IMG/VR virus record: IMGVR_UViG_2602041644_000008
Coordinates: 1-37,809 of that record
DNA length: 37,809 nt
Reading direction: 5' to 3' (one strand)
DNA from: a virus
Lineage: Duplodnaviria > Heunggongvirae > Uroviricota > Caudoviricetes
The notes beneath the pieces are model-generated. The model was given only the letters and a program-made list of their open reading frames with translations, made no database searches and was not told the DNA's origin. Each line of letters begins with the position of its first letter. Positions within the stretch are counted from its first letter, which is position 1. Positions 7,141 to 25,848 of the stretch are shown here, piece by piece. A program made the translations under genes and the position numbers.

Positions 7141-7159
7141 TGCTTTTCCTCACAATAAC

Positions 7160-9455: not shown

Positions 9456-10307
9456 TCACTGTGCAGTTTTCGCTGATCGATTTTCAGCTCTAAATTCAAG
9501 AACCGTTTCAATATTTCTTTCCTTCAGCATATCAATAACATTTTTATTCACTTGACTATCACTGGTTAATAACTGGTAAACGTTGCTTCTCTCTTTATCA
9601 GAGTTTTCTTTAACAGCTGCTTTGCATGCCAAATGCTTATTGAAATTTTCTACATCGCTAGTACAGGAATTTACGGCTGCTGATGAAATATCAGACGCTG
9701 AAGAAACACCATCATCCAAACGTTTTATAGCATTTTCTATACATGAGTTAAGGGAATAAACGACAACTGAGCGATACCCTTCAGACGCACACCATTCTAA
9801 ATTTCTTGAAGGATCGAGTGGTTTTACTTCGCTGGATTGAATTAACTTGTCAAAAACTGACTTATATTCAATCTGTTTTTTATCTATAGCCCATACTTCA
9901 GTAGCTGATTTATAATTCCCCGTATGCCTATTAACATCAAATCCATGTTTTATAAGCAAATCTGCCCATGAAAGATTTATTGATTCATTGTTATGAGGCC
10001 ATTTTCCTGTCAGAACCGCCCCCATAGACCCCATATATCCGCCATATGATGGTATAGCACCATGGCTCAGTAACTTCTCAGCAACCACAGGGCAATTAAT
10101 TACATAAGAGGCGTAAAGCCCATTCCATAAAGCCCCTCTATAGTAATCGCCACGATTAGGTTCTTTTAAGTCGATAGCCTTTGATAATTGTTCACACGTT
10201 TTGCATGCATCAAAGTTATCCTTATTGCATTGCAATGAACTGGCAGCTGTAGGATTTACAGAGACTATTGAAAGCACTATGCCAAAAAACAAATTTATTT
10301 TTTTCAT
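9456..10307 (-). CDS. Secreted Cys-rich protein (283 aa) with ankyrin-like repeat signatures; last gene of the virion operon
   Basis: Signal peptide MKKINLFFGIVLSIVSVNPTAASS. 10 Cys. LLSHGAIP and LLIKHGFDVNRH resemble ankyrin repeat ends. Start is 1 nt after the stop of the gp16-like gene. Low GC. Confidence 0.5.
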   Translation of the reverse strand: MKKINLFFGIVLSIVSVNPTAASSLQCNKDNFDACKTCEQLSKAIDLKEPNRGDYYRGALWNGLYASYVINCPVVAEKLLSHGAIPSYGGYMGSMGAVLTGKWPHNNESINLSWADLLIKHGFDVNRHTGNYKSATEVWAIDKKQIEYKSVFDKLIQSSEVKPLDPSRNLEWCASEGYRSVVVYSLNSCIENAIKRLDDGVSSASDISSAAVNSCTSDVENFNKHLACKAAVKENSDKERSNVYQLLTSDSQVNKNVIDMLKERNIETVLEFRAENRSAKTAQ

Positions 10308-10308
10308 C

Positions 10309-13300
10309 CTATTTCATCTGCTCTTCAACTTTATTTAGTAATGGTGATATCGCCCACAGATTCTGAAAAGGTAGCATTTTACGGACAGCGTGGGTTTGCT
10401 GGCTGTCAAATTCTCCGTTAAGTACACCATTCGCAACCGTCGCGGCATCACCGCCAAGATCAAAGGTAGGACCAAGTAAAGCACCAATAGTATTACGACT
10501 CTGAAACCTTGATACCGGAGGCGCACCAAACATCGCGCCAAGACCAAACCTACCGCCGCTTATGTTCTCAACGGTATTCAGCGGCTCAGAGAGCCAGCCA
10601 AGCATTCCGCCCCGGTCGATCCCCTCTTTCACAAGGTTATTCCAGCTGTAGTCGATATCGCGACCGCTTAACTTCTGTTTCATCATATAGACCATTGAGC
10701 CAAGCGCAATCGTGCCAAGCGCACCAAGATAGAATGCAGCATCGCCCTGCTGGATACCAGATACTAGCACCCTGTTATGCTGTGCGAAGATAAACGTTTT
10801 GAACTGCGTGATCATCTTCCAGCCTTCTTTACTAAAAAACAGCGGTGTATCACCTACGCCAGGCGTTACAATCACTGAGTCTACATCTTTCAGCACTGCA
10901 GACTGGAAAATCTCTCTAGCGAAACGGTCATCCCACAGATGACTATGCCCGGTTAACAGCCCGTCCATATCCTCTCCGTGCTTCCCGAATTGCTCCCCGA
11001 TTCGGCGCAGAACATCTTCATTGATGCCGACCTGTGCCATCTTCCGCATTTCACTTTTGGAGAGCGTGCCACCAGCAGAAACTTGGCGAGCCGCGTCAAG
11101 TATCCTCGACTGCACTATCATCCCGGACCATGATTTAAGTGCGCTGTTCCACTGATTCATCAGCGTCCAGTTACCGAATTTCTGCGTCATCCAGTTCAGG
11201 CCTCGCTCAGCGGCGCTTCTCCGGCTATAGGGGTCAGTAAGATCCGCTATAGCCTTTGTACGCGTAGACAGGACATAATCAAGCCCAACGGCCATTTCTC
11301 GCAAATCCCTGGTTGCAATCTTCACTGAGTCCATATTTTTAAGCATGCTTACCATTGGTCCGAGAGATTTTCTCAGGCCATGCTGCATCATCGGTCGCAT
11401 CAGATCAGTTGCAGCGGAGACGGTCATTCCACCAAGCAAACGGAGGAAGTTAATATTCCTAGCAACTCGCCCGGCACGAACAAAGAAACTGCGTGGATCT
11501 TGAGGTGCGCCGTAAGTACCAAGCAGTCGGTCACGCATAGCCGTAATATCCCTAATATCAGCCTCCCGTTGCTTCTCAAGAGCTGCACGTCGTTTAGGTG
11601 TTTTAGCCTCTTTTATTAGCCGGGTATATTCCTCACTAACCTGACGGATTTGCTCCCCCATATCTTTACGGCCAAACTGCGCAGTCAGCTCAATTTCTGG
11701 CGCCACCTGCCGGAGATAACTTTCCATGATGTAGTTAACATCTGATTCAAGAAAATCTTCTATACGCTCATCAGGAATAAGCAGCGTTCGGCTTTTAGTG
11801 AAACCAGCCCGACCAACGAGTCTCTCTGGGATAATATCGGCTGGTACAAGCCCGGAAGGTGCGCCTATTATTTTATTCACGATCTCGTCAGCAGCGTCCT
11901 CTGCTTCCTCTCGGGATAGAGGCTCCATCTGCTTCAGTGCTCGCTCGCGGCTTGCATTCAGCCTTGTGGTTGAATTTGCCCGTTTTTGCAGTCGGCGAAG
12001 CTCAGAACGATATTTCCGTGGATTATCCAGCAACTCCATATGGCGCTGATAGACAGGAAGCTCACTCTTTGCCTGCGCTATATCATCAAGGCGAGTTTTA
12101 AGGTCAGAGCTTTCTTTCATCATTCTTGCCTGAAGTTTTTCTGATGAAGTCTCGGCCAACTCTTTTTCTATTCTTGTAAGACGCGCCTGTGTGTCAGTCT
12201 CCTGAGATATAAGCCTATTTCGTTTATCCAGTTCTTCCATGAGTAGAATTTTTTTACCAGACCATTTCTCCGCTTCAGCGATTTCACTAGCGAGAGCATC
12301 AGCGCGCAGTGCTGATTCCTCTGCAGTTTTTAGCAATGAATTTATCTTTTCAATTCGCTGACCTGCTTTGTCAGCACCTTTGGCACTAATCCCTTGTATC
12401 CAGTTGGCAATTCGCCCTCTGAATTCCGTGCGGTCGGAAAGTATCTTATCGAACTTATAAATGCGGGGAAGATAACTTTTCGCCGTCACGACATCGATAT
12501 CCTCAGGAAGGATCCCCAATTCCTGCATACGGGCTTTTGTGGTCTCAAAAATGGGGCGGATTCTGGCGGCTGCTTGTGAAACCTCAGGAATATCACTCTG
12601 ATCACCACGGCGCATAGCCATGCCAACAGCTTCATTGAAATCAATAAAGTTCATCCTCTTCACGCCGCGGGCGCTGACAGATTTGCTGTACTGCTGGTAA
12701 GCATCACGAGTAGCTTCCATCTGCTTATAAAGCATGGCGTCGTATTGCTTAATCTTAGTCTCGACTGCCGTAAACGTAGCCAACCCCTCATCATTTTTGG
12801 CGAAGAAATAGTTATTTTCGGCAAGCTGCTGGTTAATCTGACGGGAAACAAGAGATGGTGATTGCGCCAAGCGGCCAGCAGGAGTGACACTCAACGTTTT
12901 GTTAGCAAGTCCAAGTCCAGCGAGCTGTTCCTGATCGAGTGTGGTATTGAAAACCTGAGCTGCACCAATGCTTTGAGGAGAATCCATACCTCGCAAATGA
13001 TTACCTACTGAGTTAACCACTGCCTCGCGCGCGCTAGGTCCAGCAAGTAGCTGTGCACCAGCACCAAGGATCCCACCAACGAGAGCATCAACAACAACGT
13101 TCGATACGCTCTCCATCGGTGAGCGAGCTTCCTGAGTGGCCTGCAATGCGGCCTCTGAAGCAACACTGCCAGCAGCATTGGCTAAAGCAAAACGTCCGGC
13201 TGTTTCTGCAATACGACCGCCACGAACGACAGCGCCGAACGGAATAAACATAGAAATCGCATTGAATGGATCTGCTAATCTCATTGCTACAGAAGAGACT

Positions 13301-13698
13301 GTACCAGCAAATCCCAAGCCTGAATTGTATTCCATGTCAGCTCTCTGCTGATCGATTCGATGTTTAATTGCCATTGTTTCTTCAGGCGAACCGGAGTTGA
13401 TAAACGAATCTGCAAAATCTTCATAGCCTTTAATATCTGCTGCATCGTTATCAAATGGGTTATATCCTTCAACCCTGTCAAACTGACTGAAAGGAGCACT
13501 GGCAATAAAGCTACCCAGCGTGTTATCTATACGAAATGCTGCTTGTCTAGACCTTTGAACGCGTTGATCACTGGTAAATGGGTTCACAGCAGAAAGCAAA
13601 GAAGGTGTTTCCATATAGAAATTACTGTCATCAGGTGCTGCTATTTGCTGAATATCCTCGCCAAGCAACTCTTTAGGATCCTGTTCATATATCGGCAT
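10309..13698 (-). CDS. Internal virion/ejection protein, T7 gp16-like by position and size (1129 aa)
   Basis: Large protein following the gp14- and gp15-like genes in T7 order. Coiled-coil-rich middle. No motif verified. Confidence 0.55.
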   Translation of the reverse strand: MPIYEQDPKELLGEDIQQIAAPDDSNFYMETPSLLSAVNPFTSDQRVQRSRQAAFRIDNTLGSFIASAPFSQFDRVEGYNPFDNDAADIKGYEDFADSFINSGSPEETMAIKHRIDQQRADMEYNSGLGFAGTVSSVAMRLADPFNAISMFIPFGAVVRGGRIAETAGRFALANAAGSVASEAALQATQEARSPMESVSNVVVDALVGGILGAGAQLLAGPSAREAVVNSVGNHLRGMDSPQSIGAAQVFNTTLDQEQLAGLGLANKTLSVTPAGRLAQSPSLVSRQINQQLAENNYFFAKNDEGLATFTAVETKIKQYDAMLYKQMEATRDAYQQYSKSVSARGVKRMNFIDFNEAVGMAMRRGDQSDIPEVSQAAARIRPIFETTKARMQELGILPEDIDVVTAKSYLPRIYKFDKILSDRTEFRGRIANWIQGISAKGADKAGQRIEKINSLLKTAEESALRADALASEIAEAEKWSGKKILLMEELDKRNRLISQETDTQARLTRIEKELAETSSEKLQARMMKESSDLKTRLDDIAQAKSELPVYQRHMELLDNPRKYRSELRRLQKRANSTTRLNASRERALKQMEPLSREEAEDAADEIVNKIIGAPSGLVPADIIPERLVGRAGFTKSRTLLIPDERIEDFLESDVNYIMESYLRQVAPEIELTAQFGRKDMGEQIRQVSEEYTRLIKEAKTPKRRAALEKQREADIRDITAMRDRLLGTYGAPQDPRSFFVRAGRVARNINFLRLLGGMTVSAATDLMRPMMQHGLRKSLGPMVSMLKNMDSVKIATRDLREMAVGLDYVLSTRTKAIADLTDPYSRRSAAERGLNWMTQKFGNWTLMNQWNSALKSWSGMIVQSRILDAARQVSAGGTLSKSEMRKMAQVGINEDVLRRIGEQFGKHGEDMDGLLTGHSHLWDDRFAREIFQSAVLKDVDSVIVTPGVGDTPLFFSKEGWKMITQFKTFIFAQHNRVLVSGIQQGDAAFYLGALGTIALGSMVYMMKQKLSGRDIDYSWNNLVKEGIDRGGMLGWLSEPLNTVENISGGRFGLGAMFGAPPVSRFQSRNTIGALLGPTFDLGGDAATVANGVLNGEFDSQQTHAVRKMLPFQNLWAISPLLNKVEEQMK

Positions 13699-16445
13699 TA
13701 TTTGCCCCCTGCGTATATATTGCTCGGAAGGTAATTGGCTGAACCATAACCGAATGGTTTGGTCAGATCTGGAGGAGTATATCCATCTTTATTGCTGAAC
13801 TGCGGCAGCGGATTGCCTTCTCTCCGCACTCTAGCCTCATCAACACGCTGTTGCTGGAACTGAATGGTTTGCCTGTACATTGGAGATGTCAGCTGATCCG
13901 GCTTGAAACGAACAGGGAGACCATTTTCTCCAATATAATTTCTCGGTTCTATCGCTCCGTTTGCGTCAGGCTGTAAAACCATAACAGCATAACTCCTATC
14001 CCTTGCCGTAAGGCCATCAGAAACAAGTATTAAGTCCGTATCACTGCGAGGACCGCCAAAGGATTTTGATTTAAGCTCGCGTTTTTCCTGCTCCCACTGC
14101 CCCTGTATCCAGTTACCAGCACCATTATTTACTCCGTACAATGCCTCAGGTGCATACTTCATAACCTCTGCTTTGCCATTAACCGTAGAAACTCCCCAGG
14201 TGGTTCTGATCATGGCATTGGTCATTTTCTCAGCCTGTTCTGCATCGCCACCTGTCTGTACAAAGTTAGCATCGTAAATTGTCTGGTAATCTCGCTGATA
14301 GGCCGCATTTGATTTTCCTGGATCGGTAATATCCGGAGACCACGAACCAAAGGAAGTCAGACTGCTGGCGTTATTTTGTGCAGCAGTTGCCCTCGCCGCG
14401 ACATATTTTTTGTCTCGCATGGCAGTGGAAAGCATCTGTTTCATTCGGTCATCCTGTTGGAACACCTGGCTGTAAGCCATATCAACAGCCTTATCCTCCG
14501 GCACTCCAGCGCGGGAATAATCGTAAACCTTGCCGTAAAATGCCATCGTACTTTTATCAAGTGTTGCCGCTGCCGCCGGATTATTATCGAATAACTGACC
14601 GTAGAATTTTGCCATCGGGACAACCAGCGCAGGATCTCTTGATGTTGCTCCACTGTTAAGCATTGTTTTAACCTGAGTTGGTATCATGCCGCTTTTAGTT
14701 GTGACGGTGACCAGTGTATTGATGCTCTGCGGATCAGATATGGAAAACGAAGGCGCGATATCCTGCGCGAAATAACGGTCTACCGCTGCCTGATTGTTTT
14801 TGTCGTTCGGGTCCAGCGGGAAGTTATTTTGCATTGAAGACACGAACCTGTTTCTTCCCTGCTGAATCTCCCACTCCCTATCCATCTCTTTAAATTTGGC
14901 CTGCATTTTCTCCCAGCGTTGCTGGTTAGCTGCAAATCCAGGAGCGTTTGGATCCTGTGGACGTAAACGTTCAAGAATGTCTTGTCGTCCTTCTGGAGTG
15001 AGGTCTTTAGCGGCACCAATGACACCTCCATATTGTATCTGCGCCTGCATATCCTTCCACTTCATAGCGCCAATGCGCGGACCATTGGCCCGGATAAAAT
15101 CGTCCTCAGAAGGTAACTTCTCAGGTTTCAATCCTTCATCAAGGGCTGAATATGCATCTTTAACTACGGTGCTAAGCTGGTCCGCATACTGCTGGCGGTA
15201 CTGATTTCTCAGCTCATTAGCCTGCCTCAATGCCTGTATTTGCATTTGAGGGCTCATAGCATCAAATGCCGCATTGCCCGTATAACGCTTAGGTGAATCA
15301 AGGTTAGTTAGACCAAGGGCTGCCGAGATACCAGTTTCAAGCTGTTCGGTGCTATAAGGCATACTGCCATTTTCGTGTTTAATAATCCCAGCACATAAAG
15401 CAGCTAGTGTCTTTGGGTTAGAGATATCAAGCTGATCATTCTCCCCAACACCAAGCTCACCACACAATGCCCTAATATAAGCATCAGTATTATTACCATC
15501 ACTAGCCGGAGCATAGCGATTAACAATCTCGCTAACGGTGTCATAGCCTTGACGCTGGTAAGACAACATATTTTTACCCAACGCGCGGATTCCATGCTCA
15601 GGGGTAGCAAACGTTGCAAAACGTCCATCGCTACCGATCTGACCTTCCCACGGGTTAGATTTGCTCGCTTCAATATTACCAGGGTTATTATTACGTAAAC
15701 CACGAGCATCCAATGAATTACCATGTGATATTGCACGACTCACACCATCAAGATCCCCTGGCTCTCCATTAACCTGAAGAAACTCGTTGTATTTTTGAGC
15801 GATATTTCCTATCCATGCTTGCTGCCCCATTTGTTCCTTGAGCTGAGTTTTCTGCTGAACACGCCACTCATCAGGAAGCCCATGCGCATCAGCGTATTGA
15901 TCAATAGATTCAAATCGCTGCTTGGCTAAATCGACAAATGCTTGGTTATCGCTATATAGCCCCGCAGACTGAGTGACAGCCAATGCATTTCCTGACAAAT
16001 ACGTTTGATCTTGGAATTGCTGAAACTGCCCAACTTCATATCGACGTGCCTGATTGTAATAAGACTGCATAGACTGCTGGAGTTGAAAGGATAATTTATT
16101 CCTTTCCTCACTTTCAGGAATTGAGCCTAATAATGCCTGAGCCCTTTCCTGCATATTTTTCATAACAGCGTCACTCTGACCAAGAGCGTTTTTACCCTGT
16201 TTAGAAATCAGCCCACTTTCAGGGTTGTTAATCTGGTCATCTGCAAATTGGTTAAATTGCAGTAACGCCTCCTGGGCCATAGCAACATTCGCTTTCTGCC
16301 TGGCTTCACCATATGCCACCGCATACTGATCTGCGACATTCGCCAGCACCTGACCTGCTTGAGGAACATCGAAGATCTGAAAACCACCGGTTTGCACACC
16401 ACGACTTTGCACCTGGCGTCCGGATGTAGTAGGAACAACAGGCAT
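13698..16445 (-). CDS. Internal virion protein, T7 gp15-like by position (915 aa), with embedded conserved NNPGN-motif domain
   Basis: Residues about 245-365 are GLRNNNPGNIEASK..FATFATPEHGIRALGKNMLSYQRQGYDTVSEIVNRYAPASDGNNTDAYIRALC, a compact conserved-looking block. Confidence 0.55.
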   Translation of the reverse strand: MPVVPTTSGRQVQSRGVQTGGFQIFDVPQAGQVLANVADQYAVAYGEARQKANVAMAQEALLQFNQFADDQINNPESGLISKQGKNALGQSDAVMKNMQERAQALLGSIPESEERNKLSFQLQQSMQSYYNQARRYEVGQFQQFQDQTYLSGNALAVTQSAGLYSDNQAFVDLAKQRFESIDQYADAHGLPDEWRVQQKTQLKEQMGQQAWIGNIAQKYNEFLQVNGEPGDLDGVSRAISHGNSLDARGLRNNNPGNIEASKSNPWEGQIGSDGRFATFATPEHGIRALGKNMLSYQRQGYDTVSEIVNRYAPASDGNNTDAYIRALCGELGVGENDQLDISNPKTLAALCAGIIKHENGSMPYSTEQLETGISAALGLTNLDSPKRYTGNAAFDAMSPQMQIQALRQANELRNQYRQQYADQLSTVVKDAYSALDEGLKPEKLPSEDDFIRANGPRIGAMKWKDMQAQIQYGGVIGAAKDLTPEGRQDILERLRPQDPNAPGFAANQQRWEKMQAKFKEMDREWEIQQGRNRFVSSMQNNFPLDPNDKNNQAAVDRYFAQDIAPSFSISDPQSINTLVTVTTKSGMIPTQVKTMLNSGATSRDPALVVPMAKFYGQLFDNNPAAAATLDKSTMAFYGKVYDYSRAGVPEDKAVDMAYSQVFQQDDRMKQMLSTAMRDKKYVAARATAAQNNASSLTSFGSWSPDITDPGKSNAAYQRDYQTIYDANFVQTGGDAEQAEKMTNAMIRTTWGVSTVNGKAEVMKYAPEALYGVNNGAGNWIQGQWEQEKRELKSKSFGGPRSDTDLILVSDGLTARDRSYAVMVLQPDANGAIEPRNYIGENGLPVRFKPDQLTSPMYRQTIQFQQQRVDEARVRREGNPLPQFSNKDGYTPPDLTKPFGYGSANYLPSNIYAGGK

Positions 16446-17020
16446 CAGTAACCTCCTATTTTGAATCGGGAGTCAGAATTCATAAAACCTGAGTTAGATA
16501 ACATTGGCGTCCCACCACTAGATGTACTTCCTTTAGAGAACGGACTCCACGTCCCACCAAACATCTGGTACGCACCGTATGCCTTCAGAGGCGCAGTGAG
16601 TAAAGTTGTTGCTGCTCCCACATTCCCCTGTTTACGGGCTGAACTGGCTTCTGCTTTATAGTTGGCAGCCTGAACCTGATAACCGTAAGCCTCGCGTTGC
16701 GCGTTATTCACCGTCGTCAGAGAATCAAGAGCGCCAAACTGGGCAGTGTCGCCAAATATATCCAGCGCGTTACCTGTAGATAAATCAGCGCCGGTAGCCC
16801 CCATTGTCGCCGCCTGTGTACCAAGCCGCTGTCGGGTCTCTCTGCGCCGTTGCTCAGCTTCAGCGTTACCTCTGTTTATTGCATCATTTGCCTGAGCTGT
16901 GGCTATATCTGCGTTCGCTTCTGCAACCTTCGAGGCATACTTTCCCTGTTGGTACTGGGTGTATGCCTGAATGCCACTCATGGCGAGCATTGCGCCACCA
17001 GCAATAACCGGATCGCACAT
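16445..17020 (-). CDS. Internal virion protein B (T7 gp14-like)
   Basis: N-terminus MCDPVIAGGAMLAMSGIQAYTQYQ resembles T7 gp14 MCWAAAIPIAISGAQAISGQ. Length 191 aa versus 196 for gp14. Confidence 0.55.
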   Translation of the reverse strand: MCDPVIAGGAMLAMSGIQAYTQYQQGKYASKVAEANADIATAQANDAINRGNAEAEQRRRETRQRLGTQAATMGATGADLSTGNALDIFGDTAQFGALDSLTTVNNAQREAYGYQVQAANYKAEASSARKQGNVGAATTLLTAPLKAYGAYQMFGGTWSPFSKGSTSSGGTPMLSNSGFMNSDSRFKIGGY

Positions 17021-17484
17021 TATTTTCTCTCCATGTGAAATCTGTGGAAATTAAGACCAAGAGCACCATAAGGCGCGGCTTCTTCAAGCCTGAATCCAAG
17101 CCAGTGCAGCCATGCTTTGGCAACATGGTTTCGCTCGTCGACATAGTTTTCCAGGCGCGGATAAACTGCCAGCATCTGCTGCAATACAGGGCGGCAGTGG
17201 CGAAGAAATGTCTTCTGATATTTTTCGATACGGCTGGTTCCGACCAGCCAGGGCGTACCATTGCCACCGATCATTGACGCCGGAGATACGCCAAACATGG
17301 TTACCAGTTCTCCGTTCGCAAATCCTGACCAGGCCATAGTCGCAGTACGCAGACCAACACGCAGCGCATCTTCGGTAGTCATCAGTGATACCGCATACAG
17401 TTCGTCAATATCAGCCTGACGAACATCCGGCAAAATCATCTGAAGATGCTCTTCGGTTGCGGGAATAATTTGAACACCGATCAT
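17020..17484 (-). CDS. Virion-module protein (gp13 position), unknown function
   Basis: Position only, between the gp12-like and gp14-like genes. Confidence 0.35.
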   Translation of the reverse strand: MIGVQIIPATEEHLQMILPDVRQADIDELYAVSLMTTEDALRVGLRTATMAWSGFANGELVTMFGVSPASMIGGNGTPWLVGTSRIEKYQKTFLRHCRPVLQQMLAVYPRLENYVDERNHVAKAWLHWLGFRLEEAAPYGALGLNFHRFHMERK

Positions 17485-19955
17485 CAGAATCCCCCAACAG
17501 TAAGGCGAGGAATAACGGCAAGAACAGACAGCGGCAACGGATCAAGCTGACGGATTTTTACACGTCCGTTTTTGCCCCAGTTACTGTCCAGTTTCACTTC
17601 TACTTTTCCGGTAGCATCATCAACAGGATCATCGTAGAACTCGAATTCACGCTGTGGATATTCGTACCATTTACCGCCGGGCGTAGTCGCCCAGATGCCG
17701 CGACTGGCATTCACAACCAGAGTAACGGAGGGGATCACCTGTTTTTTGTCCAGCAGCGTTTCCTGTCCGTTAATGTTGATATCCAGTGTTTCGAATTCAG
17801 CAGTTATTGGCAGGCCGATGTGCACTACAGCCCCCGGAGATTCCAGCGTGACGGCACCTCCGGAAACCACTTTCTGTGGTTCCACGTTCGCATCAGAGAG
17901 AATGTTTACGGTCTGGCCTTCAAGATGAGACAGGCCTCCAAATGTCCGGCGCGCCATCTGCCAGTTCGTGGTGGCCACATTCCTGAGGGATGGCGGGACG
18001 TTCCTGTTAGCACGAACCACTACAGCGGTGTTGCTGGTTACAGAAATAATGTCGCAACGTAATTCTTTTGACACTTCATCGCCAGTATCAGGATCAGTTC
18101 CGGTATAAGGGAACTGTAGTTGCGCGCCGACATCACTACTGGTGAAGTACGCACCACCAGAAACACTGATTGTATATTCCGCATGGTAATCCCATTCACC
18201 AGAACCACCAGTGATGGTCATCGTTCTGTCAGACGTATTTCTTCCATCATAGCTAAGGCCAGAATCAACAAAGAAAGCATCTTCATCGCTGGTAAATAAA
18301 CGGCTGGACAGTCGCTCGATGTATCTCACTGTTTGCCCGTTAACGGTTCGGTTAACGACGAAATACACCGCATCTTCATTGCCTTCGCTGATACTGCATG
18401 TGCTTTCATATTTTCCGGTACTGGATTGTGGTGCCCATGCAAAAACCTGCTGATCACGCAAATAGGTCATCACCAGTAATTTACCGTCATCACGAATGCA
18501 GAAGGCACTGGAGTAAGGGACAATCGAGAAGCACCAGTCAACAATGCTGTGCTTCTGAAAAAGATGATTGGCAAGGATGGTCAGGTCGTTCCCCTGATAG
18601 CCGTCAACATCGAATGAGTAGGCCAGATCACGGACAACGCTGCCTTTCTCCTGGACGAACAGAGCAATATTCGCCACGGCAATTGGCGGGACGTTGCTTG
18701 AGCCATTTGATCCCTGAGAGCTGAATGCAAATGATGATGGGGTTAACACTTTGTTCTGGTCGCCGGTGATGACGTACTCACCTCCGGAAGTCAGCGCCAC
18801 CAGAGAACCAACATCAATCAGGTGACGGATCTCATTAACCTGACGCCCGGCATAGGTGTAGATAATTCTGTCGTCATCCTGCGTAGGATTGCTTTTGCCA
18901 AAATCCTTATAATCCCCGGTACGGCTGGCCCAGATAGTCTGAGGGAACGCAGTCGATGCGGCGAAGTAAAGACGTTGTTGATAATAAACAACAGTGCCAG
19001 GATAACCATTAACACTGTTCCAGGCATATTTAGCCCATTTATAGCTGGCATTATCCTCGCCAACGACCTGCGAAGGGATATAGGAAATCACCTCGGCAGT
19101 TGCAGTAGTTCCATTTGCAGCAGTGATACGGGCAATGCCAAAACCACTGTGCAGATATTCCCACTCAATGCCGGTATCATCATCACCGGATCCGCCCCAG
19201 CCATCCCATGATGTGCCTTCTGTATGCGAAGGGCGCAAAGTGCCTGTTTTACCTGCTGTAACAGCGCGATAGTAGTTACTGTCTGCACGGCGAACATCGT
19301 CAATCGACGTACTCTTACTGGTTTCCCATACCGGCACTGAATCCACTGCAGGCTGTTCCAGATAGAACAATTTGCCTACCTGCTCCGAGCCAAAAATAGA
19401 GGCGCTTGCCGTTAACGTAATTGTCCCGGTGCTGGCGCTGGCATAAACCGTCACTGACTCGTCAATATTGATATCTTCAAATGGTCCGTTCTTCGTTACC
19501 ACATCAACCAGTTGCCAGTTGTCATGCGCATAGCGACGCAACTCTTTCGGCGGGTATGCCGGATGAACCAGCGTAAGCACGTCTGCGCTTTGCGTGAATT
19601 TAATTCGGAACAGATCGGCTTCAGTATATGGCGTGGCAATTTCATAAATAACATTGCTGCTGTTCAGCACCAACGCACCATCTTTGATAACGCGCATGTA
19701 CTGGTGTCCGAACTCCAGAGCATAGGTCTGAACCGTCGAGAACTGGAACGGGATCAGGCGGCATTTCCGATTTTGGTATTTGGCGGCACCGACAAAACGC
19801 GTACCAGGTCGATTCTCAACGCCGCCATACTGCCGCACGATAAAGTTATCGCACTTGCGCAATGCTACCTGGTACTTCGCCATGTCAATACGCCCGTACA
19901 ACGACGGTCCAATCTCACCACCGGCAAAACTGGGCTGGATCCAACTGATAGCCAT
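17484..19955 (-). CDS. Tail tubular protein B / nozzle (T7 gp12-like)
   Basis: 823 aa versus 794 for gp12. N-terminus MAISWIQPSFAGGEIGP parallels gp12 MALISQSIKNLKGGISQQP. Follows the gp11-like gene. Confidence 0.55.
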   Translation of the reverse strand: MAISWIQPSFAGGEIGPSLYGRIDMAKYQVALRKCDNFIVRQYGGVENRPGTRFVGAAKYQNRKCRLIPFQFSTVQTYALEFGHQYMRVIKDGALVLNSSNVIYEIATPYTEADLFRIKFTQSADVLTLVHPAYPPKELRRYAHDNWQLVDVVTKNGPFEDINIDESVTVYASASTGTITLTASASIFGSEQVGKLFYLEQPAVDSVPVWETSKSTSIDDVRRADSNYYRAVTAGKTGTLRPSHTEGTSWDGWGGSGDDDTGIEWEYLHSGFGIARITAANGTTATAEVISYIPSQVVGEDNASYKWAKYAWNSVNGYPGTVVYYQQRLYFAASTAFPQTIWASRTGDYKDFGKSNPTQDDDRIIYTYAGRQVNEIRHLIDVGSLVALTSGGEYVITGDQNKVLTPSSFAFSSQGSNGSSNVPPIAVANIALFVQEKGSVVRDLAYSFDVDGYQGNDLTILANHLFQKHSIVDWCFSIVPYSSAFCIRDDGKLLVMTYLRDQQVFAWAPQSSTGKYESTCSISEGNEDAVYFVVNRTVNGQTVRYIERLSSRLFTSDEDAFFVDSGLSYDGRNTSDRTMTITGGSGEWDYHAEYTISVSGGAYFTSSDVGAQLQFPYTGTDPDTGDEVSKELRCDIISVTSNTAVVVRANRNVPPSLRNVATTNWQMARRTFGGLSHLEGQTVNILSDANVEPQKVVSGGAVTLESPGAVVHIGLPITAEFETLDININGQETLLDKKQVIPSVTLVVNASRGIWATTPGGKWYEYPQREFEFYDDPVDDATGKVEVKLDSNWGKNGRVKIRQLDPLPLSVLAVIPRLTVGGF

Positions 19956-20560
19956 CAGGACAACCTCGCAATGGTAAACTCGTCAACCGGTGGCTGTGGT
20001 TCCTGTGATTCATTCTGGCTATGCGAGCCAGCACTCAGAATCACGCGATTGTACATATTGAGGGCAAACGTACCGAGGTCTGCCTTCCCAGTCAGCGCCA
20101 TGTTAATAGCTGCCGCAAGACGCCAGGCCAACGCCTCCATAAAAATGGCATCAAACATGTTCACATCTGAAACGCGAGAGACATACTTGAGCCATGCCTG
20201 CGGCTGGTCTGTGTAGATCAACTTTCCTGTTCCGTTGGTGTCTGCACCAACTTCGTACTGAACGCGCATTGCTGCTGTTGGATTGCGTACACCAGGAAGC
20301 ATAATTTCAGTAATGCGCAGACAATCGGACGGGTACTGGTACGCATATTCCCAGTCAGGCGGTGGATTGCTCGTATCTGCAAGCGCCACGCGTTTGGTAG
20401 CAAAGTTCCAGTCAAAATCAGAAAGCACAGCATCACGGCAGGCCTCAAAGTGCAGCGAACATTCCCCCGCTTCCTTGCTGGCTTCCGTCAGGCTGTTAAT
20501 ACTGCGGCTGTTGCCAATATTGGACAGCGCACGATTGCAGATCTCTACTACAGAGGCCAT
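19955..20560 (-). CDS. Tail tubular protein A / adaptor (T7 gp11-like)
   Basis: 201 aa versus 196 for gp11. ICNRALSNIGNSRSINSLTE..RDAVLSDFDWNFA parallels gp11 VNDILASIGEPPVSTLEG..RQIQSRGWTFN. Confidence 0.55.
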   Translation of the reverse strand: MASVVEICNRALSNIGNSRSINSLTEASKEAGECSLHFEACRDAVLSDFDWNFATKRVALADTSNPPPDWEYAYQYPSDCLRITEIMLPGVRNPTAAMRVQYEVGADTNGTGKLIYTDQPQAWLKYVSRVSDVNMFDAIFMEALAWRLAAAINMALTGKADLGTFALNMYNRVILSAGSHSQNESQEPQPPVDEFTIARLS

Positions 20561-20582
20561 AAGTTTCTATACTCCTGCAATA

Positions 20583-20600
20583 AAGGGGCCGAAGCCCCTT
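20583..20600 (-). terminator. Intra-operon hairpin/attenuator AAGGGGC-TTCG-GCCCCTT followed by TTATT
   Basis: 7-bp GC stem with tetraloop between two late genes. Confidence 0.4.
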
Positions 20601-20616
20601 GTCTGATTCGCGAGGC

Positions 20617-20961
20617 TTACACGCCCAGTTCTTTACGCTTATCTGCGATCTTCTTGCGTAGCGTTTCGGCTTTGGCGTTATGGTGTGGCTTCTCGTTAAA
20701 GAGCAATTCGTACTCTTCACGGAGCTTATCCAGTTCACCATCATCTGACACATCGTTGATGATTTTGGTGCTGGTTGCTGCCATTGACACCTTTCCTGCA
20801 ACTTTTGCTTTTGCCTGTCTGGCTGCATCGTTAACAGGTTCCAGTGCGCTACCAGGCTCACCTTCGTATTCGATTTCTGCCCCCTCCGGCCACAGAGTGT
20901 TATGGATATGAGAGAGGCGCAGAACGCGGTATCTTGGTTTCTCACCTGACATCGATATCAC
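20617..20961 (-). CDS. Hypothetical head-module protein (114 aa)
   Basis: ORF in the late operon. No domain recognised. Confidence 0.4.
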   Translation of the reverse strand: MISMSGEKPRYRVLRLSHIHNTLWPEGAEIEYEGEPGSALEPVNDAARQAKAKVAGKVSMAATSTKIINDVSDDGELDKLREEYELLFNEKPHHNAKAETLRKKIADKRKELGV

Positions 20962-20962
20962 C

Positions 20963-21400
20963 TTAACCAGTTACTTTTGAGCGGATCGGGTACGGCGTAT
21001 TGGCATCAACATCCAGACTGATACCCGCAGTGAATTTGCCAGCCGTTAGTGGGCCAGTTGCGACGGAGTAGTTAACACGCAGATATCGCTGAACACCGGC
21101 AGGCACCTTTGCAGAAACAACTCGTTTACCTGCTGTCAGGGCGGTCTTTGCCAGTGCGCCACTATCATAAATAGTGGTCCATGAGCTGTTATTCTCACTC
21201 GTCTGCAACTGGATGTTTACAGTTGCCTCACCACTTGCCGTGGCGGCTTCGTTAACCAGCACCCAAAACTCAAGCGGATAACCCACGCCGATATCACGAC
21301 GTTTTCCGTCAATTGGACCGAGATCGATTACGTCAGTAGAAGCCGCGGTATTCGTAACCGCCTGAGCTTCGGAGAACATCAACAGTTTGTCGGTGATCAT
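20963..21400 (-). CDS. Hypothetical head protein (145 aa; decoration/minor capsid candidate)
   Basis: Follows the major capsid gene and a hairpin. Beta-rich composition. Confidence 0.4.
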   Translation of the reverse strand: MITDKLLMFSEAQAVTNTAASTDVIDLGPIDGKRRDIGVGYPLEFWVLVNEAATASGEATVNIQLQTSENNSSWTTIYDSGALAKTALTAGKRVVSAKVPAGVQRYLRVNYSVATGPLTAGKFTAGISLDVDANTPYPIRSKVTG

Positions 21401-21405
21401 CTTCT

Positions 21406-21425
21406 TTCTCCATTAGTGGGTCTGT
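21406..21425 (-). promoter_or_regulatory. Stem-loop immediately downstream of the major capsid gene (transcript stabiliser/partial terminator)
   Basis: GTGGGTC-N6-GACCCAC. Typical placement for capsid-gene stoichiometry control. Confidence 0.4.
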
Positions 21426-21451
21426 TACGACCCACAGGTTAATAACAGGCG

Positions 21452-22438
21452 TTACACCACGCGGGCTTCTGTTTCCAGAAGCGCATCAGTTTCACGGATT
21501 GGTACACCACGGAATGAAGTCCACCACTCGCCTTCTGTCTCTTTTACGCTGATCGCCAGAGATGTTTTCTCCAGAGATTGCAGATCAAGAGCCTGGCCTA
21601 CAGTGCGGTTCATGTAGAACACCGGGCGACCCATGCCACGATTTGGAATGCGATGCAGTGCTTTAACCATCAACTTCGCAATATTTGCGGCAGAGGATGG
21701 TTCTGAAAGATTGCTGACATCGATGTTTGCAATGCGAACAACATAACGCCAGTCACGCAGAGCAAGTCCGTTATCCCATTTGTAATGGGTACGGTAGCCT
21801 TCGTACTTGCCGCCATTAGCATCTTCCAGTGTCACCTGGCCTTTATCTTCCATCTGAATGCCAGCCTTCTGCCCTTTCGGGAAGATGCCATGCACGGTGT
21901 TTTCGCCCCACACCACTAACCAGATTGAGGTGTTATCTGTACCCGTGCCACCAGCATCAATGATGTTCTGAGCATTACCTGCAGACAGGCTGGAATAGCG
22001 GGAGGACAGTCCCATAAACTGCTGAGGGTTAACGCTGGAATCACCATAAAACAGCGTCTGCGCCATCTGCTGATTCATCGCTTCAATAAATGCGCGGTCT
22101 TCAGACAGGCGGAATTCGGCGGTATTGCCGTTCAGATCAGCCAGTGACTTATCGACTTCAGCATAGGTTTCCAGCATGCCCACGGAATCGGTTACCTGCA
22201 CTGTGGTTGATTTGCTTGGCTGTACGCCATAGTTCAGCAAACGCCAGGTAGCTGAAGGTAAACCAGAACGAATGGTGGTTTTGTGTCCGGTAGGAAGGTT
22301 CCCTTCGACAAAAGGCATATCCTGAAGGATCGGGTTAGTTTGACCGAGAAGCTCGATAATCTTATCGACTTTCCCATCTGGATCGACGCGCTTACCCCAG
22401 TCAGCCAGCGTTAGCGCAGTTAAGCCTTTAACAGCCAT
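21452..22438 (-). CDS. Major capsid protein
   Basis: 328-aa protein directly after the acidic scaffold gene. Call is positional; not T7 gp10-like in sequence. Confidence 0.6.
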   Translation of the reverse strand: MAVKGLTALTLADWGKRVDPDGKVDKIIELLGQTNPILQDMPFVEGNLPTGHKTTIRSGLPSATWRLLNYGVQPSKSTTVQVTDSVGMLETYAEVDKSLADLNGNTAEFRLSEDRAFIEAMNQQMAQTLFYGDSSVNPQQFMGLSSRYSSLSAGNAQNIIDAGGTGTDNTSIWLVVWGENTVHGIFPKGQKAGIQMEDKGQVTLEDANGGKYEGYRTHYKWDNGLALRDWRYVVRIANIDVSNLSEPSSAANIAKLMVKALHRIPNRGMGRPVFYMNRTVGQALDLQSLEKTSLAISVKETEGEWWTSFRGVPIRETDALLETEARVV

Positions 22439-22452
22439 TGTTATTTCCTCTC

Positions 22453-23154
22453 TTATTTGCCATAGAGCACTTCGGCCGCACTACGCTGGCCTTCATTACC
22501 ACCGGTGACCATGCCATCTTCAGACATCGCCTTTCCGATTTTCACGAACGTTTTGACCAGATCAGGGTGATTACCCAGCCCGGTGGTGTTCAGATATTCT
22601 TTGAGTTCAGGTGTCCCGAACTGGTCAAGCGCACGCTGTGCGGCGCTAAGGTTAGAAATCAACTTGTCGCCACCGATTTCTTTGTCAGCTTTTACATCAG
22701 CAGCCCACTGCTCGGTTGTTTTCTGCCAGGCTTCTGCCTGGCGCTGCTGAACACCTGCCAGAATCTTCGGATAAGCATCAACCAGCTTTTGCGCTTGCTC
22801 GTTGGTCAGGTTAAGTTCTCGCGCCACCGGCTCGAATTCCTTCAACGCTTCTGTATCCAGCTCTACGCCTTCGGCAGCCTGAAACTCGTACTTCTCCGGC
22901 GCACCATCCGGTTTATCGCCGTCCTTTTTTTCACCCTGCTTATCGCTTTCAGGCTTTTTGTCATCAGCAGGTTTATCGCCATCAGCAACAGGTTGCGGCT
23001 TATCACCTTCTTGTTGTGATGGATCACCAACTGGAGCATGGTTATCACCTGCAGGCGCTGACGGTTCTGACGCAGCCGGAGCTGCTCCACCATCGACTGG
23101 TTGCTCATTGCAAAGACGGCGATACAGCAAACGCTCAAATAAATTCATGATCAC
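22453..23154 (-). CDS. Scaffolding protein
   Basis: Highly acidic, Pro/Asp/Lys-rich N-terminus and helical C-terminus. Sits between portal and capsid genes. Confidence 0.6.
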   Translation of the reverse strand: MIMNLFERLLYRRLCNEQPVDGGAAPAASEPSAPAGDNHAPVGDPSQQEGDKPQPVADGDKPADDKKPESDKQGEKKDGDKPDGAPEKYEFQAAEGVELDTEALKEFEPVARELNLTNEQAQKLVDAYPKILAGVQQRQAEAWQKTTEQWAADVKADKEIGGDKLISNLSAAQRALDQFGTPELKEYLNTTGLGNHPDLVKTFVKIGKAMSEDGMVTGGNEGQRSAAEVLYGK

Positions 23155-23447
23155 TCCTGTTCACTGGCCTCTTTGGCCATCTTCAAATACTGTTCAGGGC
23201 AATGCGCCATAACGCGCTGAAACAGTTCCAGCGCCAGATTGCGTTGCCCCTCATTAAATGCCATTGCCATAGCGTCCATCGGTGAGATAGCGGAAAACAC
23301 ACGGCCTTTCTCCAGCACCGACCAGACAACGCGACGCCCCTGTTCACTGCTCATGACAAAGCGAATGTCATCAATTTCACGCTGCGCCATGTCACGTTGC
23401 TTACGGGCGTTTTCTTCTTTCAGTTGATCGTCTTCGTAATCTGTCAT
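23151..23447 (-). CDS. Hypothetical protein (98 aa) between portal and scaffold
   Basis: Overlapping start/stop coupling with neighbours. Confidence 0.4.
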   Translation of the reverse strand: MTDYEDDQLKEENARKQRDMAQREIDDIRFVMSSEQGRRVVWSVLEKGRVFSAISPMDAMAMAFNEGQRNLALELFQRVMAHCPEQYLKMAKEASEQE

Positions 23448-25123
23448 TGTGATTGCCCACCCTGACCACTAACTGCATTCGCCATAGCTGACAAAACACT
23501 CGGATCCGAAGTTTTAGCTTCGCTTAGCGTCTTGGCACCCTGTGCCGCCGCCATCCCCATCGCCATCATTTGTTGCTGCTGTTGCTGCTGTGCCCGTTGC
23601 TGGCGAGCCTGCTCAACCTGTTCCTGCGGAACAATGACGGTTGGAGACACTCCGGACATATCAGCGAATGCATCGATCGCCTGATCAACGTTGAGTTTGT
23701 CGAGAGCTTCTGGTTTCGCTTGCGCAAGTTGACCAATGAAGTTGACCGTAGACGCCAGACTGGACAGGCCGATAGACTTCTGCGCCTGAGCCATGACGGA
23801 AATGTATTCGACCTTCAGGGGCATACCTTCCATCGCGTCAGGCGGTGGCGGCAGCATGTTTTTACGCACCATCATCGAGAAAGAGCGGTCAATGAGAGGA
23901 TTAAGACATTCGTCGTTCAGACGCTCCAGAACCGGCCCCAACATCAGAAGTTTTTCTTCTTTCATTTCGATCACCGCTTCAACAGGCATCGAGCGGGTAT
24001 TGATGTTCTGCAACATCATGAACAGATCGACAAAGTAGGCGCTGTTAATGATTTGACGAGTGTCCTGAATGTCTGCTACCAAATCTGCTGTACTGGGGTT
24101 AACCAGATAAGCAGGCCTGAAGCCATCCTGACCAGTAATCTGATCGATATACGTGATGTCGCCAGGAAGAAGGGAGGCGCGCTGATTCTTGAGGGAAATC
24201 GGAGCAACCATCGGCGGATTGGTGGCTTTATCAATCAACTGCGACTTGCGCTTCTGGAGAAGCTGCAATGCCTTAACAGGTCCAAGCGCCAGCATACCCG
24301 GGCATGATGATCCATAAACATCTTCGCCGTTAACTTCCCAGCGCGGAGCCATAATTGGAAACTCATCGAATCCGGACTCACGCAACAACTTGTCGTTATC
24401 GCCACCAACCTCGTAATAAACCGATTTGAATGGCTTGTTCTTGCTATCCAGCTTCGATGTATCGCGGTCAATGTTCGGGTAAACCGAATGCATCACTTCA
24501 ATCCACTTCTCGTAGGTGCCGCTTTCCCACATGCTTTTTACGGATTCGCTGACGTTATTTAGCCCGAACTCCTGAACAAGCTGACGAACAGTCATAGAGA
24601 ACTTGCGAAAACAGGTGTCCACACTGCCACGAGGTGAGTTAGCCAGGTAGTAACTGCCTATCGGGAATGGCATTGTGCGAATGATGTCCTCGTCATCCTC
24701 CAGCACTGCCATTGCACCAGTGCTGTATGTGCCGAGGCTTCCGTATAACTGCGGCAGCGACTGATAGAGATTCGACTTATTGAACATATCGTTCATGCGG
24801 TTCTGCACCGCCTCAAGCCACAACTTAACAGGGCCATAATCCATCATTTCAGGATCTGGCGTAGCCAGGCGAAACCACGGACGCGCGGGGCTTGTGATGC
24901 CTGACATCATGCCGCTGGCGAGAGTGCGCGCCGCCATAGTCCCGGTCGAATCAATAATGCGTGTATTGCGTCGATCGTTACGGTTGACCTCAGAAGTCAG
25001 AAAGCGGGAACCACGCGGGTTGATGTAATCACTCAACTCGCGCCAGTGCGGCTCGAACGACTGACGCTCGCTTTCAAGTTGTGCGAACTGTTTGTTCAAT
25101 CGCTCTTTAGTTGTTTCCGCCAT
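23444..25123 (-). CDS. Portal (head-to-tail connector) protein, T7 gp8-like
   Basis: 559 aa. C-terminal QQRAQQQQQQQMMAMGMAAAQG..AMANAVSGQG parallels the T7 gp8 C-terminus (QQKMAQQSMQMGMDNGAAALAQGMAAQ). Confidence 0.75.
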   Translation of the reverse strand: MAETTKERLNKQFAQLESERQSFEPHWRELSDYINPRGSRFLTSEVNRNDRRNTRIIDSTGTMAARTLASGMMSGITSPARPWFRLATPDPEMMDYGPVKLWLEAVQNRMNDMFNKSNLYQSLPQLYGSLGTYSTGAMAVLEDDEDIIRTMPFPIGSYYLANSPRGSVDTCFRKFSMTVRQLVQEFGLNNVSESVKSMWESGTYEKWIEVMHSVYPNIDRDTSKLDSKNKPFKSVYYEVGGDNDKLLRESGFDEFPIMAPRWEVNGEDVYGSSCPGMLALGPVKALQLLQKRKSQLIDKATNPPMVAPISLKNQRASLLPGDITYIDQITGQDGFRPAYLVNPSTADLVADIQDTRQIINSAYFVDLFMMLQNINTRSMPVEAVIEMKEEKLLMLGPVLERLNDECLNPLIDRSFSMMVRKNMLPPPPDAMEGMPLKVEYISVMAQAQKSIGLSSLASTVNFIGQLAQAKPEALDKLNVDQAIDAFADMSGVSPTVIVPQEQVEQARQQRAQQQQQQQMMAMGMAAAQGAKTLSEAKTSDPSVLSAMANAVSGQGGQSQ

Positions 25124-25137
25124 TTCAATGACTCCGG

Positions 25138-25344
25138 TTACTGACCAAGCAGCGTTTTACCGCTGGTATTAGCGGTTGATGTGTCACCCTGAGAACCGGT
25201 AAGCAGCGTAGAACTACGACCAGCAGCAGCGCGACGGCGACGTGTTTCTTCGTCGCGGGCATCAACAACGGCGGCATCCTGCTCCTGTGGTGCTGCCTGA
25301 ACTTCTGGTGTTGCAGGCACTGATGGTGAGCTACCCATGCACAT
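25138..25344 (-). CDS. Small Pro/Ala-rich protein (68 aa) upstream of portal
   Basis: Shares the RBS context GGAGTCATTGA-N-ATG with the portal gene. Confidence 0.35.
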   Translation of the reverse strand: MCMGSSPSVPATPEVQAAPQEQDAAVVDARDEETRRRRAAAGRSSTLLTGSQGDTSTANTSGKTLLGQ

Positions 25345-25433
25345 ATCAATGACTCCGTACGCAATTAAATTATTACCAATTTAACCACATATGATTTATT
25401 TATCGTAGATAATTGACATTTAACGCACGAGTT

Positions 25434-25450
25434 ATTACCTTTCAGGTAAG
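25434..25450. promoter_or_regulatory. Operator dyad ATTACCTTTCAGGTAAG next to a TTGACA -35 box (25413-25418)
   Basis: Intergenic, between the start of the minus-strand late genes and the plus-strand leader/tRNA unit. Confidence 0.5.
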
Positions 25451-25479
25451 CAAAGAGTTCATTCCGGTTATTAACCTGA

Positions 25480-25770: not shown

Positions 25771-25771
25771 T

Positions 25772-25848
25772 GTGGCATTAGCTCAGTTGGACAGAGCAAC
25801 CGCCTTCTAAGCGGTTGGTTGCAGGTTCGAATCCTGCATGCCACGCCA
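25772..25848 (+). tRNA. tRNA-Arg (anticodon UCU)
   Basis: Cloverleaf: acceptor GTGGCAT/ATGCCAC, D-arm GCTC..GAGC, anticodon stem ACCGC/GCGGT with loop CTTCTAA, T-arm GCAGG-TTCGAAT-CCTGC, 3' CCA encoded. Resembles argU. Confidence 0.85.

Follow-up and report, generated by a model that had tools for sequence, protein, structure and literature searches.

Gene content and integration site

The DNA analyzed in this study (IMG/VR virus record IMGVR_UViG_2602041644_000008; 37,809 nucleotides, hereafter the window) holds most of a temperate podovirus prophage, from its left end, together with flanking host DNA. The listing of open reading frames (ORFs) placed two plus-strand host genes leftmost; a long series of minus-strand genes came next, and a divergent gene pair lay near 35.3-36.2 kb (Table 1). 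A first-pass annotation of segment 10309-25123 had described a temperate phage with an authentic T7-family virion module, lambdoid control and replication, and no RNA polymerase (RNAP) gene. The ORFs of this segment did follow the order of T7 genes 8, 11, 12, 13, 14, 15 and 16. When the segment was compared with phage genomes by megablast, the top match was phage EC.W1-9, with 98.4% identity over 100% of the query. Phages phiV10, TL-2011b, ZX5, PAS61, the O157 typing phages and others matched at ~98% identity, solely from query position ~6231 rightwards (window ~16540), and epsilon15, Tyrion, PAT1 and Klebsiella phages matched at 75-82%.

The attachment (att) core of phiV10, epsilon15 and ZX5 is ATTGAGTGGGAATGATT (PMC9782041). 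This core was found exactly once in the window, next to yfgI, and similarity to phage genomes began at position 1164. The window was collinear with the annotated EC.W1-9 and phiV10 records and with the complete prophages of E. coli AST20 and SBF22. Both prophages were flanked by yfgI on one side and by a tyrosine integrase adjoining guaA on the other; the core was present at both prophage ends in SBF22, and the second copy in the relatives lay at guaA, beside the tyrosine integrase. Because of the placement of the core and its two copies in SBF22, the window was read as the left junction plus ~36.4 kb of a phiV10/epsilon15-type prophage, with the integrase end beyond the window. A repeat of the yfgI/guaA terminator hairpin had been considered as the att core and was dropped once the published 17-bp core was matched exactly.

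The element is almost certainly a temperate podovirus prophage of the phiV10/epsilon15-like (Uetakevirus-like) kind that occupies the att site near guaA in an E. coli chromosome; it combines an epsilon15/BPP-1-type capsid with a T7-type delivery machine. Its gene content, homologies, att site, synteny and lack of an RNAP gene were all observed directly. With phiV10 and epsilon15 (genus Uetakevirus) the window shared the att core and the insertion site, and the lysis, head, portal, adaptor, nozzle, gp13-like, gp14-like, terminase, replication and immunity genes were 97-99% identical to those of phiV10, which in addition carries a gp10 staple gene and an O-acetyltransferase gene (oac), both missing from the window. 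EC.W1-9 (PP445227) and SBF22-type prophages (NZ_CP067235) were closer, with 98.3-98.4% nucleotide identity over 9187-26035. The genes for the 915-, 1129- and 283-amino-acid (aa) proteins described below were common to both, and EC.W1-9 also shared the absence of gp10; it differed in the tailspike C-terminus and moron block (~3600-9200) and in the nin-like genes (29200-32600), and the window copy had in addition a 68-aa MarR-like ORF and an IS21-family insertion.

Table 1. Positions of the genes, RNAs and sites in the window, with the evidence for each assignment.
Feature	Position	Strand	Evidence or remark
Host genes yfgH, yfgI	1-1071	+	E. coli chromosome, left end of window
att core ATTGAGTGGGAATGATT, left prophage/chromosome junction	1164-1180	-	Exact match to published phiV10/epsilon15/ZX5 attP/attB core
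DUF2514 Rz-like spanin	1268-1765	-	RefSeq/phage annotation of collinear relatives
GH19 endolysin	1762-2391	-	RefSeq/phage annotation of collinear relatives
Holin	2381-2689	-	RefSeq/phage annotation of collinear relatives
Second holin-like membrane protein	2676-3092	-	RefSeq/phage annotation of collinear relatives
Tailspike, 771 aa; N-terminal ~166-aa anchor, C-terminal pectate-lyase-like receptor-binding part	3621-5936	-	phrog_1640, phrog_27277
isrK RNA	7305-7381	+	Rfam
C4 antisense RNA	7400-7487	+	Rfam
Bro-N antirepressor-like ORF	7491-8228	+	Pfam Bro-N at 2.4e-13
Cys-rich protein with signal peptide, 283 aa, last cassette gene	9456-10307	-	phrog_6118 (function unknown)
gp16-family internal virion (ejection) protein, 1129 aa, without N-terminal transglycosylase domain	10309-13698	-	phrog_342 at 4e-233
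Internal virion protein at gp15 position, 915 aa	13698-16445	-	Inserted lytic transglycosylase/endolysin domain, aa ~247-399
gp14-family internal virion protein, 191 aa	16445-17020	-	PF24072 T7_gp14, 33.7 bits vs cutoff 27
gp13-like internal virion protein, 154 aa	17020-17484	-	phrog_308 at 1.6e-62
Tail nozzle, gp12 / tubular tail protein B type, 823 aa	17484-19955	-	PDB 8ck1_A 'Tail Nozzle' at 2e-217
Head-to-tail adaptor, gp11 / tubular tail protein A type (predicted), 201 aa	19955-20560	-	Fold match
Deletion site of gp10 'capsid staple' gene (phiV10p13, 324 bp)	20561-20567	-	Breakpoints window 20560/20568 vs phiV10 8458/8133
epsilon15 gp9-like	20617-20961	-	Head-gene block
Bbp16 cement	20963-21400	-	PF21190 at 4.9e-49
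GP7-type major capsid protein	21452-22438	-	PF20911 at 1.5e-149
Protease/scaffold	22453-23154	-	Head-gene block
Bbp19-like	23151-23447	-	PF25181 at 2.8e-17
Portal, 559 aa, T7 gp8 family	23444-25123	-	PF12236 at 2e-186
tRNA-Arg (anticodon TCT, reads AGA), phage-borne	25772-25848	+	ARAGORN, Rfam
Terminase large subunit	26494-27969	-	phrog_2/5902
Terminase small subunit	27966-28640	-	phrog_51
Terminator-like hairpin, just ahead of terminase genes	28631-28614	-	Consensus scan
Promoter-like site	28684-28655	-	Consensus scan
Regulator gene, phrog_536 'transcriptional regulator'	28681-29028	-	1.2e-53
lambda-P-type helicase loader	33292-34092	-	PF06992 at 1.5e-56
DnaT/HTH_36 initiator	34074-34889	-	PF17948 + PF13730
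Cro-like gene	35256-35486	-	phrog_35
Two-HTH repressor, divergent from Cro-like gene	35641-36225	+	HTH_3 and PHROG matches to both halves; phiV10 annotation
IS21-family element end (IstB C-terminus)	37561-37809	-	IstB motif in translation

Portal, adaptor, nozzle and tailspike

Pairwise relationships to T7 proteins were assessed by Smith-Waterman scores against composition-preserving shuffles and are given as z. The portal and T7 gp8 both belonged to PF12236, the PHROG cross-hits were reciprocal (332 and 449), and the pair scored z=10.4. The Q/A/M-rich C-terminal 80 aa of the portal scored z=5.8, which agreed with the T7-like portal C-terminus described before. The 201-aa adaptor showed no sequence-level signal against T7 gp11 (Pfam Tube negative; hhalign with a shallow profile E 0.47), and its relationship was seen in the fold. 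An AlphaFold2 model of the adaptor (pLDDT 87) matched T7 gp11 (7box_M) at E 2.6e-6 with TM-scores of 0.57-0.59, and it also matched the tail tubular protein A (TTPA) of phage KP32; the best fold matches were the Carin-1 connector 8ck1_E and the LME-1 adaptor. The adaptor was thus predicted by the model to be of the gp11 type at the fold level only. For the nozzle, a profile of 30 sequences drawn from a family of 18,312 representative clusters was aligned with T7 gp12 by hhalign at E 2.8e-5 and a probability of 74%, with columns 334-453 against gp12 residues 349-466, that is, in the central domain only. The central domain of gp12 is the sole significantly similar region reported (PMC4819975). 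The same profile also matched 'nozzle gp13' 23sh_T. The resemblance to gp11 and gp12 had originally been placed in the N-termini of the two proteins, and this failed, since the N-terminal 60 aa of each scored at chance (z=-0.3 and z=0.7).

The nearest solved structures for the nozzle, the adaptor and the tailspike anchor were those of Carin-1 (PDB 8CK1), a podovirus of Cobetia marina that differs in its marine host and its receptor-binding domains; the values were E 2e-217 for the nozzle, E 2e-25 with a Foldseek TM of 0.83 for the adaptor, and E 9e-35 for the tailspike N-terminus against the Carin-1 tail fibre N-terminus. The tailspike gene lay outside the segment in which a gp17-like tailspike N-terminus had been described. 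Both its N-terminus and that of T7 gp17 matched phrog_1640 and phrog_27277, across an identical stretch of ~160 N-terminal positions, which supports a relationship at the family level, whereas direct comparison of the anchor with gp17 gave no significant result (Pfam PF03906 E 0.38; pairwise z=1.0, with the first 60 aa at chance). A profile of the tailspike N-termini of five relatives, which was too little diverse, reached E 0.094 against gp17 in hhalign. The GC content fell to 36-39% in window 3000-5000, which covered the C-terminal part of the tailspike and an adjacent 115-aa ORF (3302-3649). This region was common to the AST20 prophage and absent from EC.W1-9, phiV10 and SBF22. The low GC content and the sharing with AST20 only, among these four, suggested that the receptor-binding module was exchanged horizontally.

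Internal core proteins and the variant cassette

Four proteins stood at the positions of the T7 internal core proteins. The 154-aa protein and T7 gp13 both matched phrog_308 (gp13 at 1.1e-42) and scored z=3.9 against each other, and the match of the 154-aa protein to Pfam PF11090 was no better than E 0.088. The 191-aa protein and T7 gp14 both matched PF24072, and both begin with 'MC', as had been claimed. The homology of the 915-aa protein to gp15 was suggestive only. Its score against T7 gp15 was z=4.0 and its hhalign E-value 0.061; in a Foldseek search of 350,542 PDB chains the best four matches were all T7 gp15, yet the TM-scores were 0.12-0.20. Its C-terminal half gave no tblastn link to autographivirus gp15 proteins among phages.

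The 1129-aa protein was related to gp16. It covered positions 192-1227 of phrog_342, compared with 4-1227 for T7 gp16, and it was aligned with T7 gp16 over a collinear C-terminal block (hhalign E 7e-4; z=5.4). Its C-terminal ~480 residues matched proteins of Proteus phages PM85 and PM116, Burkholderia phage JG068, Mesorhizobium phage Lo5R7ANS and Pelagibacter podophages (tblastn E 1e-4 to 2e-14). These partners were annotated as 'internal virion protein (with endolysin domain)' and are gp16 homologues of RNAP-encoding podoviruses. Of the two proteins described earlier as gp15/16-sized, the gp16 homologue was therefore confirmed and the gp15 homologue was left at the level of suggestion. The lytic transglycosylase domain is located at the N-terminus of gp16 in T7 and inside the gp15-position protein in the window. 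Because aa ~247-399 of the 915-aa protein resembled the N-terminal domain of Gp29, the gp16 homologue of the T7-like phage E1004, the lytic domain in the window was housed in the gp15-position protein and not in the gp16-like one. A match of the 1129-aa protein to Pfam DUF919, a baculovirus family (23.4 bits over 46 residues), was judged to be a coiled-coil artefact, and no function was assigned from it.

The genes downstream of the gp14-like gene differed from those of phiV10. Nucleotide identity with phiV10 ended at 16539, inside the final ~20-30 codons of the gp14-like gene, and resumed right of 9187 in the relatives; the 191-aa protein matched phiV10 p17 (95% identity) only in aa 1-170, with a mosaic junction near codon 160-170. 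The variant segment of 7.1 kb (~9452-16538) encoded the 915-, 1129- and 283-aa proteins in place of phiV10 p18-p21; the three large proteins that follow gp14 in phiV10 measure 837, 600 and 824 aa (phrog_992, 1145 and 684). The 915-aa protein was 44% identical to phiV10 p18 over the first ~500 residues. The 1129-aa protein had no BLASTP match to phiV10 p19 or p20, and p20 belonged to another PHROG (684). Of 5426 complete E. coli genomes, 120 contained the same cassette, which was also seen in Klebsiella, Serratia, Pectobacterium, Yersinia and Salmonella. The chance is about even that the segment is a functional alternative ejection cassette, swapped into a phiV10-type genome by recombination within the 3' end of the gp14-like gene and replacing the epsilon15 three-protein set by a more T7-like gp15/gp16 pair. 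It would then follow that distant podovirus lineages can exchange whole ejectosome modules. The 1129-aa protein carries the RefSeq label 'DUF919 family protein' and its neighbours are labelled hypothetical; the ejection module is thus under-annotated in ~2% of complete E. coli genomes. The 283-aa protein matched no Pfam or NCBIfam family and, judged from its sequence, is probably a secreted moron or a lysogenic-conversion or exclusion factor, not a virion protein. Its gene was low in GC and lay at the end of the late operon.

Head and terminase

The proteins of the head were not of the T7 type. The GP7-type major capsid protein, a Bbp16-like cement protein, the protease and a Bbp19-like protein, which together mark an epsilon15-type head, were all present, and the head proteins were 99% identical to their phiV10 counterparts. 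The major capsid protein belonged to PF20911 (epsilon15 GP7), whereas that of T7 belongs to PF21703 (Gp10A-like). No similarity to T7 gp9, gp10, gp18 or gp19 was found among the proteins of the window. As judged by these family assignments, the capsid protein, cement, protease and terminase come from lineages other than T7.

Lysogeny control, replication and late transcription

The early region shared several features with lambdoid phages such as lambda and P22, namely the divergent repressor/Cro pair, a lambda-P-type loader, iterons inside the initiator gene (compare lambda ori in O) and the nin-type genes Ead/Ea22, DUF1064 and DUF551. The two helix-turn-helix (HTH) repressor, the cro gene and the nin-like genes of the first-pass annotation were thereby borne out. 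The O/P replication module was borne out in part, since the P-type loader and the iterons were present but the initiator was of the DnaT/HTH_36 type and not lambda O; the virion genes were likewise unrelated to those of lambda. The initiator gene contained, at 34486-34638, about six direct repeats of iteron-like type (ATCCCGTTTTTGGG..., repeat family D1) spaced 18-24 nt apart, and this region is likely the replication origin.

Control of lysogeny was not purely lambdoid. The isrK and C4 RNAs scored 74.7 and 78.2 bits in Rfam, over the gathering thresholds, and lay directly upstream of the Bro-N ORF, forming a module like immI of P1/P7, in which a C4 antisense RNA also precedes an antirepressor, amid the late genes. 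An antirepressor role has been shown experimentally for the ZX5 homologue of the Bro-N ORF (PMC9782041). The sequence thus indicates a C4-RNA/antirepressor module of secondary immunity that was added to the repressor/Cro pair. The regulator gene and the promoter-like and terminator-like sites at 28614-29028 may form the late-control region, and they fit the idea of a terminator-controlled terminase block as far as consensus matches go. No match to the N and Q antitermination families was identified. Since no phage RNAP was present, the late genes would be read by the host RNAP.

Integrity of the prophage

Several points weigh against the assignment to a phiV10/epsilon15-like temperate prophage as stated above. 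The right end of the present copy (integrase, attL) lies beyond the window. The identity-weighted similarity of the prophage part of the window, which lacks the right prophage end, was 56% to phiV10 (59% aligned) and 80% to EC.W1-9, and the value for phiV10 falls under the usual ~70% ICTV genus line; EC.W1-9 was assigned to Uetakevirus by its authors (10.1101/2024.06.28.601134). The promoter and terminator consensus scans behind the proposed mechanism of late transcription showed no enrichment relative to shuffled sequences. Finally, an IS21-family element interrupts a PD-(D/E)XK RecE-like gene of the prophage at 37561 and leaves the integrity and inducibility of the present copy unproven. Similarity to the relatives ended at 37560, and the sequence past this position was multi-copy across E. 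coli chromosomes and plasmids.

The gp10 staple gene, which is a hallmark of the epsilon15 capsid and not a taxonomic criterion, was replaced by 7 nt in the window. It was cleanly absent from EC.W1-9 too, and phiV10 p13 had no tblastn match in either; phiV10 and the AST20 and SBF22 prophages have the gene. The IS21-family insertion, the missing staple gene and an integrase not visible within the window are what a decaying, non-inducible prophage remnant would show, one whose virion module no longer forms a functional unit. This is unlikely. All structural ORFs were full length and 99% identical to their phiV10 or EC.W1-9 counterparts, and the RecE-like gene is expected to be dispensable for lytic growth. 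EC.W1-9, which is staple-less and carries the cassette, forms plaques and virions (10.1101/2024.06.28.601134). If the staple was lost in the viable lineage of the window and EC.W1-9, it would be dispensable in this capsid.

Extent of the relationship with T7

In the comparison with the T7 proteome that the first-pass annotation proposed, neither BLASTP nor phmmer significantly related any of the virion proteins to the 21 T7 proteins, the best match being a spurious portal-gp16 pairing. Smith-Waterman scores rose above chance for four of them, the portal and the 1129-, 915- and 154-aa proteins. NCBIfam gave zero matches for any virion protein, and neither Tube nor Phage_nozzle was matched in Pfam at loose thresholds. 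Profile- and fold-level searches supported homology for gp8, gp13, gp14, gp16, the gp17 N-terminus, gp11 and gp12. The kinship with T7 therefore holds solely at the profile or fold level, and it is confined to the DNA-delivery end of the virion (portal, tail, core and fibre anchor). The 'authentic T7-family virion module' stood for the portal, tail and core and not for the major capsid protein, Bbp16 cement, protease and terminase.

T7 and the window shared the portal family, the adaptor fold, the central domain of the nozzle, the gp13, gp14 and gp16 families, the gene order and probably the fibre-anchor domain. T7 has an RNAP, a DNA polymerase, a primase-helicase and T7 promoters that the window lacks, and the window differed in being temperate, in its major capsid protein family and terminase, and in the presence of protease and cement proteins. 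In six-frame searches of the window, EC.W1-9, phiV10 and the AST20 prophage, the T7 proteins, including RNAP (gp1), DNA polymerase, primase-helicase, single-stranded DNA-binding protein and exonuclease, gave no tblastn match at E<=1. No RNAP was annotated in the complete relatives; gp5, gp4, gp2.5 and gp6 had no matches in the four sequences, and no T7 promoter consensus was found within 3 mismatches. The absence of an RNAP gene from the window was thus confirmed, and no RNAP-containing T7-like early region appeared in any of the four. Because no RNAP was found in the window or in the three complete relatives, the defining feature of Autographiviridae, a phage RNAP, was missing from these sequences.

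A recent lysogenic offshoot of Autographiviridae, that is, a T7-like phage which lost its RNAP and gained lambdoid early genes, would account for the gene order 8-11-12-13-14-15-16 and for the Pfam and PHROG families that the portal, gp13, gp14 and gp16 have in common with T7. We consider such an origin very improbable, since pairwise identity with T7 proteins, at about 10-20%, lay within noise or close to it, other families accounted for the major capsid protein, cement, protease and terminase, and no relic of T7 early or replication genes remained in the four genomes. Moreover, the same architecture is found throughout the epsilon15/BPP-1 group, whose split from T7 was about as deep as that between phiRIO-1 and T7 (PMC4819975). 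A prophage of the P22 type (Lederbergvirus), the other common enterobacterial temperate podovirus with lambdoid control, would fit the temperate lifestyle, the early genes of lambdoid type, the antirepressor module and the O-antigen tailspike, but it can be practically dismissed here because every nucleotide match was to phiV10/epsilon15-type phages, the major capsid protein and portal belonged to PF20911 and PF12236, the adaptor and nozzle matched the Carin-1, LME-1 and T7 types, and the att site was the phiV10/epsilon15 core.

The phiV10/epsilon15-like prophage represents an already known phage type. The epsilon15/phiV10 group has been known since the 2000s, and no new evolutionary intermediate was found. 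A 'transient tail homology group' uniting T7, epsilon15, P22, N4 and others was defined by Hardies et al. in 2016, with epsilon15 homologues of tubular tail proteins A and B and of internal virion proteins (IVP) IVP-A, IVP-B and IVP-D at syntenic positions, while IVP-C could not be confirmed (PMC4819975). Swanson et al. listed epsilon15 in 2022 among the phages with gp14/15/16-like ejection proteins (PMC8954989). Our result is a rediscovery of this published epsilon15-T7 tail and core homology group, and the proposal that a lysogenic relative of autographiviruses of evolutionary interest had been found was not upheld. Little is new, as it was already established that temperate podoviruses of the epsilon15/phiV10 type combine tails and cores related to those of T7 with transcription by the host RNAP and early genes of lambdoid type; the temperate biology, att site and tests of the repressor and antirepressor have been reported for ZX5 (PMC9782041), and mining E. 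coli genomes for Uetakevirus prophages is routine (PMC10408124). Only the divergent ejection cassette and the clean loss of gp10 were mildly new, as modest leads. The variant cassette and the staple-less capsid offer small, testable leads to structural virologists.

Proposed working of the phage

The mode of transcription, the ejection of the core and the competence for induction are proposed here by analogy with the biology of epsilon15, T7 and ZX5. From its homologues, the CI-like two-HTH repressor would maintain lysogeny in opposition to the Cro-like protein, and the Bro-N antirepressor under the C4 antisense RNA would act as a second switch. During replication, the iteron-binding initiator and the lambda-P-type loader would recruit the host DnaB. 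The late genes would be transcribed by the host RNAP, probably from the promoter/terminator unit downstream of the small regulator gene and ahead of the terminase genes. The predicted virion couples a capsid of the epsilon15/BPP-1 type (with a major capsid protein of GP7 fold, Bbp16 cement and a maturation protease) to a T7-type delivery machine, which consists of the gp8-family portal, the gp11-type adaptor, the gp12-type nozzle and tailspikes docked by the gp17-type N-terminal anchor. The internal core of gp13-, gp14-, gp15- and gp16-like proteins would be ejected to digest the peptidoglycan and to form a channel across the envelope.

Other genes and the EC.W1-9 record

EC.W1-9 was described as a phage without integrase and safe for therapy (10.1101/2024.06.28.601134). 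Its GenBank record (PP445227) has an integrase and a repressor annotated at 5066-6316 and 573-1157, and the phage proposed for therapy as 'integrase-free' is essentially the common prophage described here (~98% identical). Flanked by the portal and terminase blocks, the tRNA-Arg gene is on the other strand from the late genes and is kept in related prophages. The 68-aa MarR/winged-helix ORF at 36830-37036 (+) lies in a segment of ~195 bp, which was absent at that position from EC.W1-9, phiV10, AST20 and SBF22 and present in other E. coli prophages, such as E47 and DETEC-S566.

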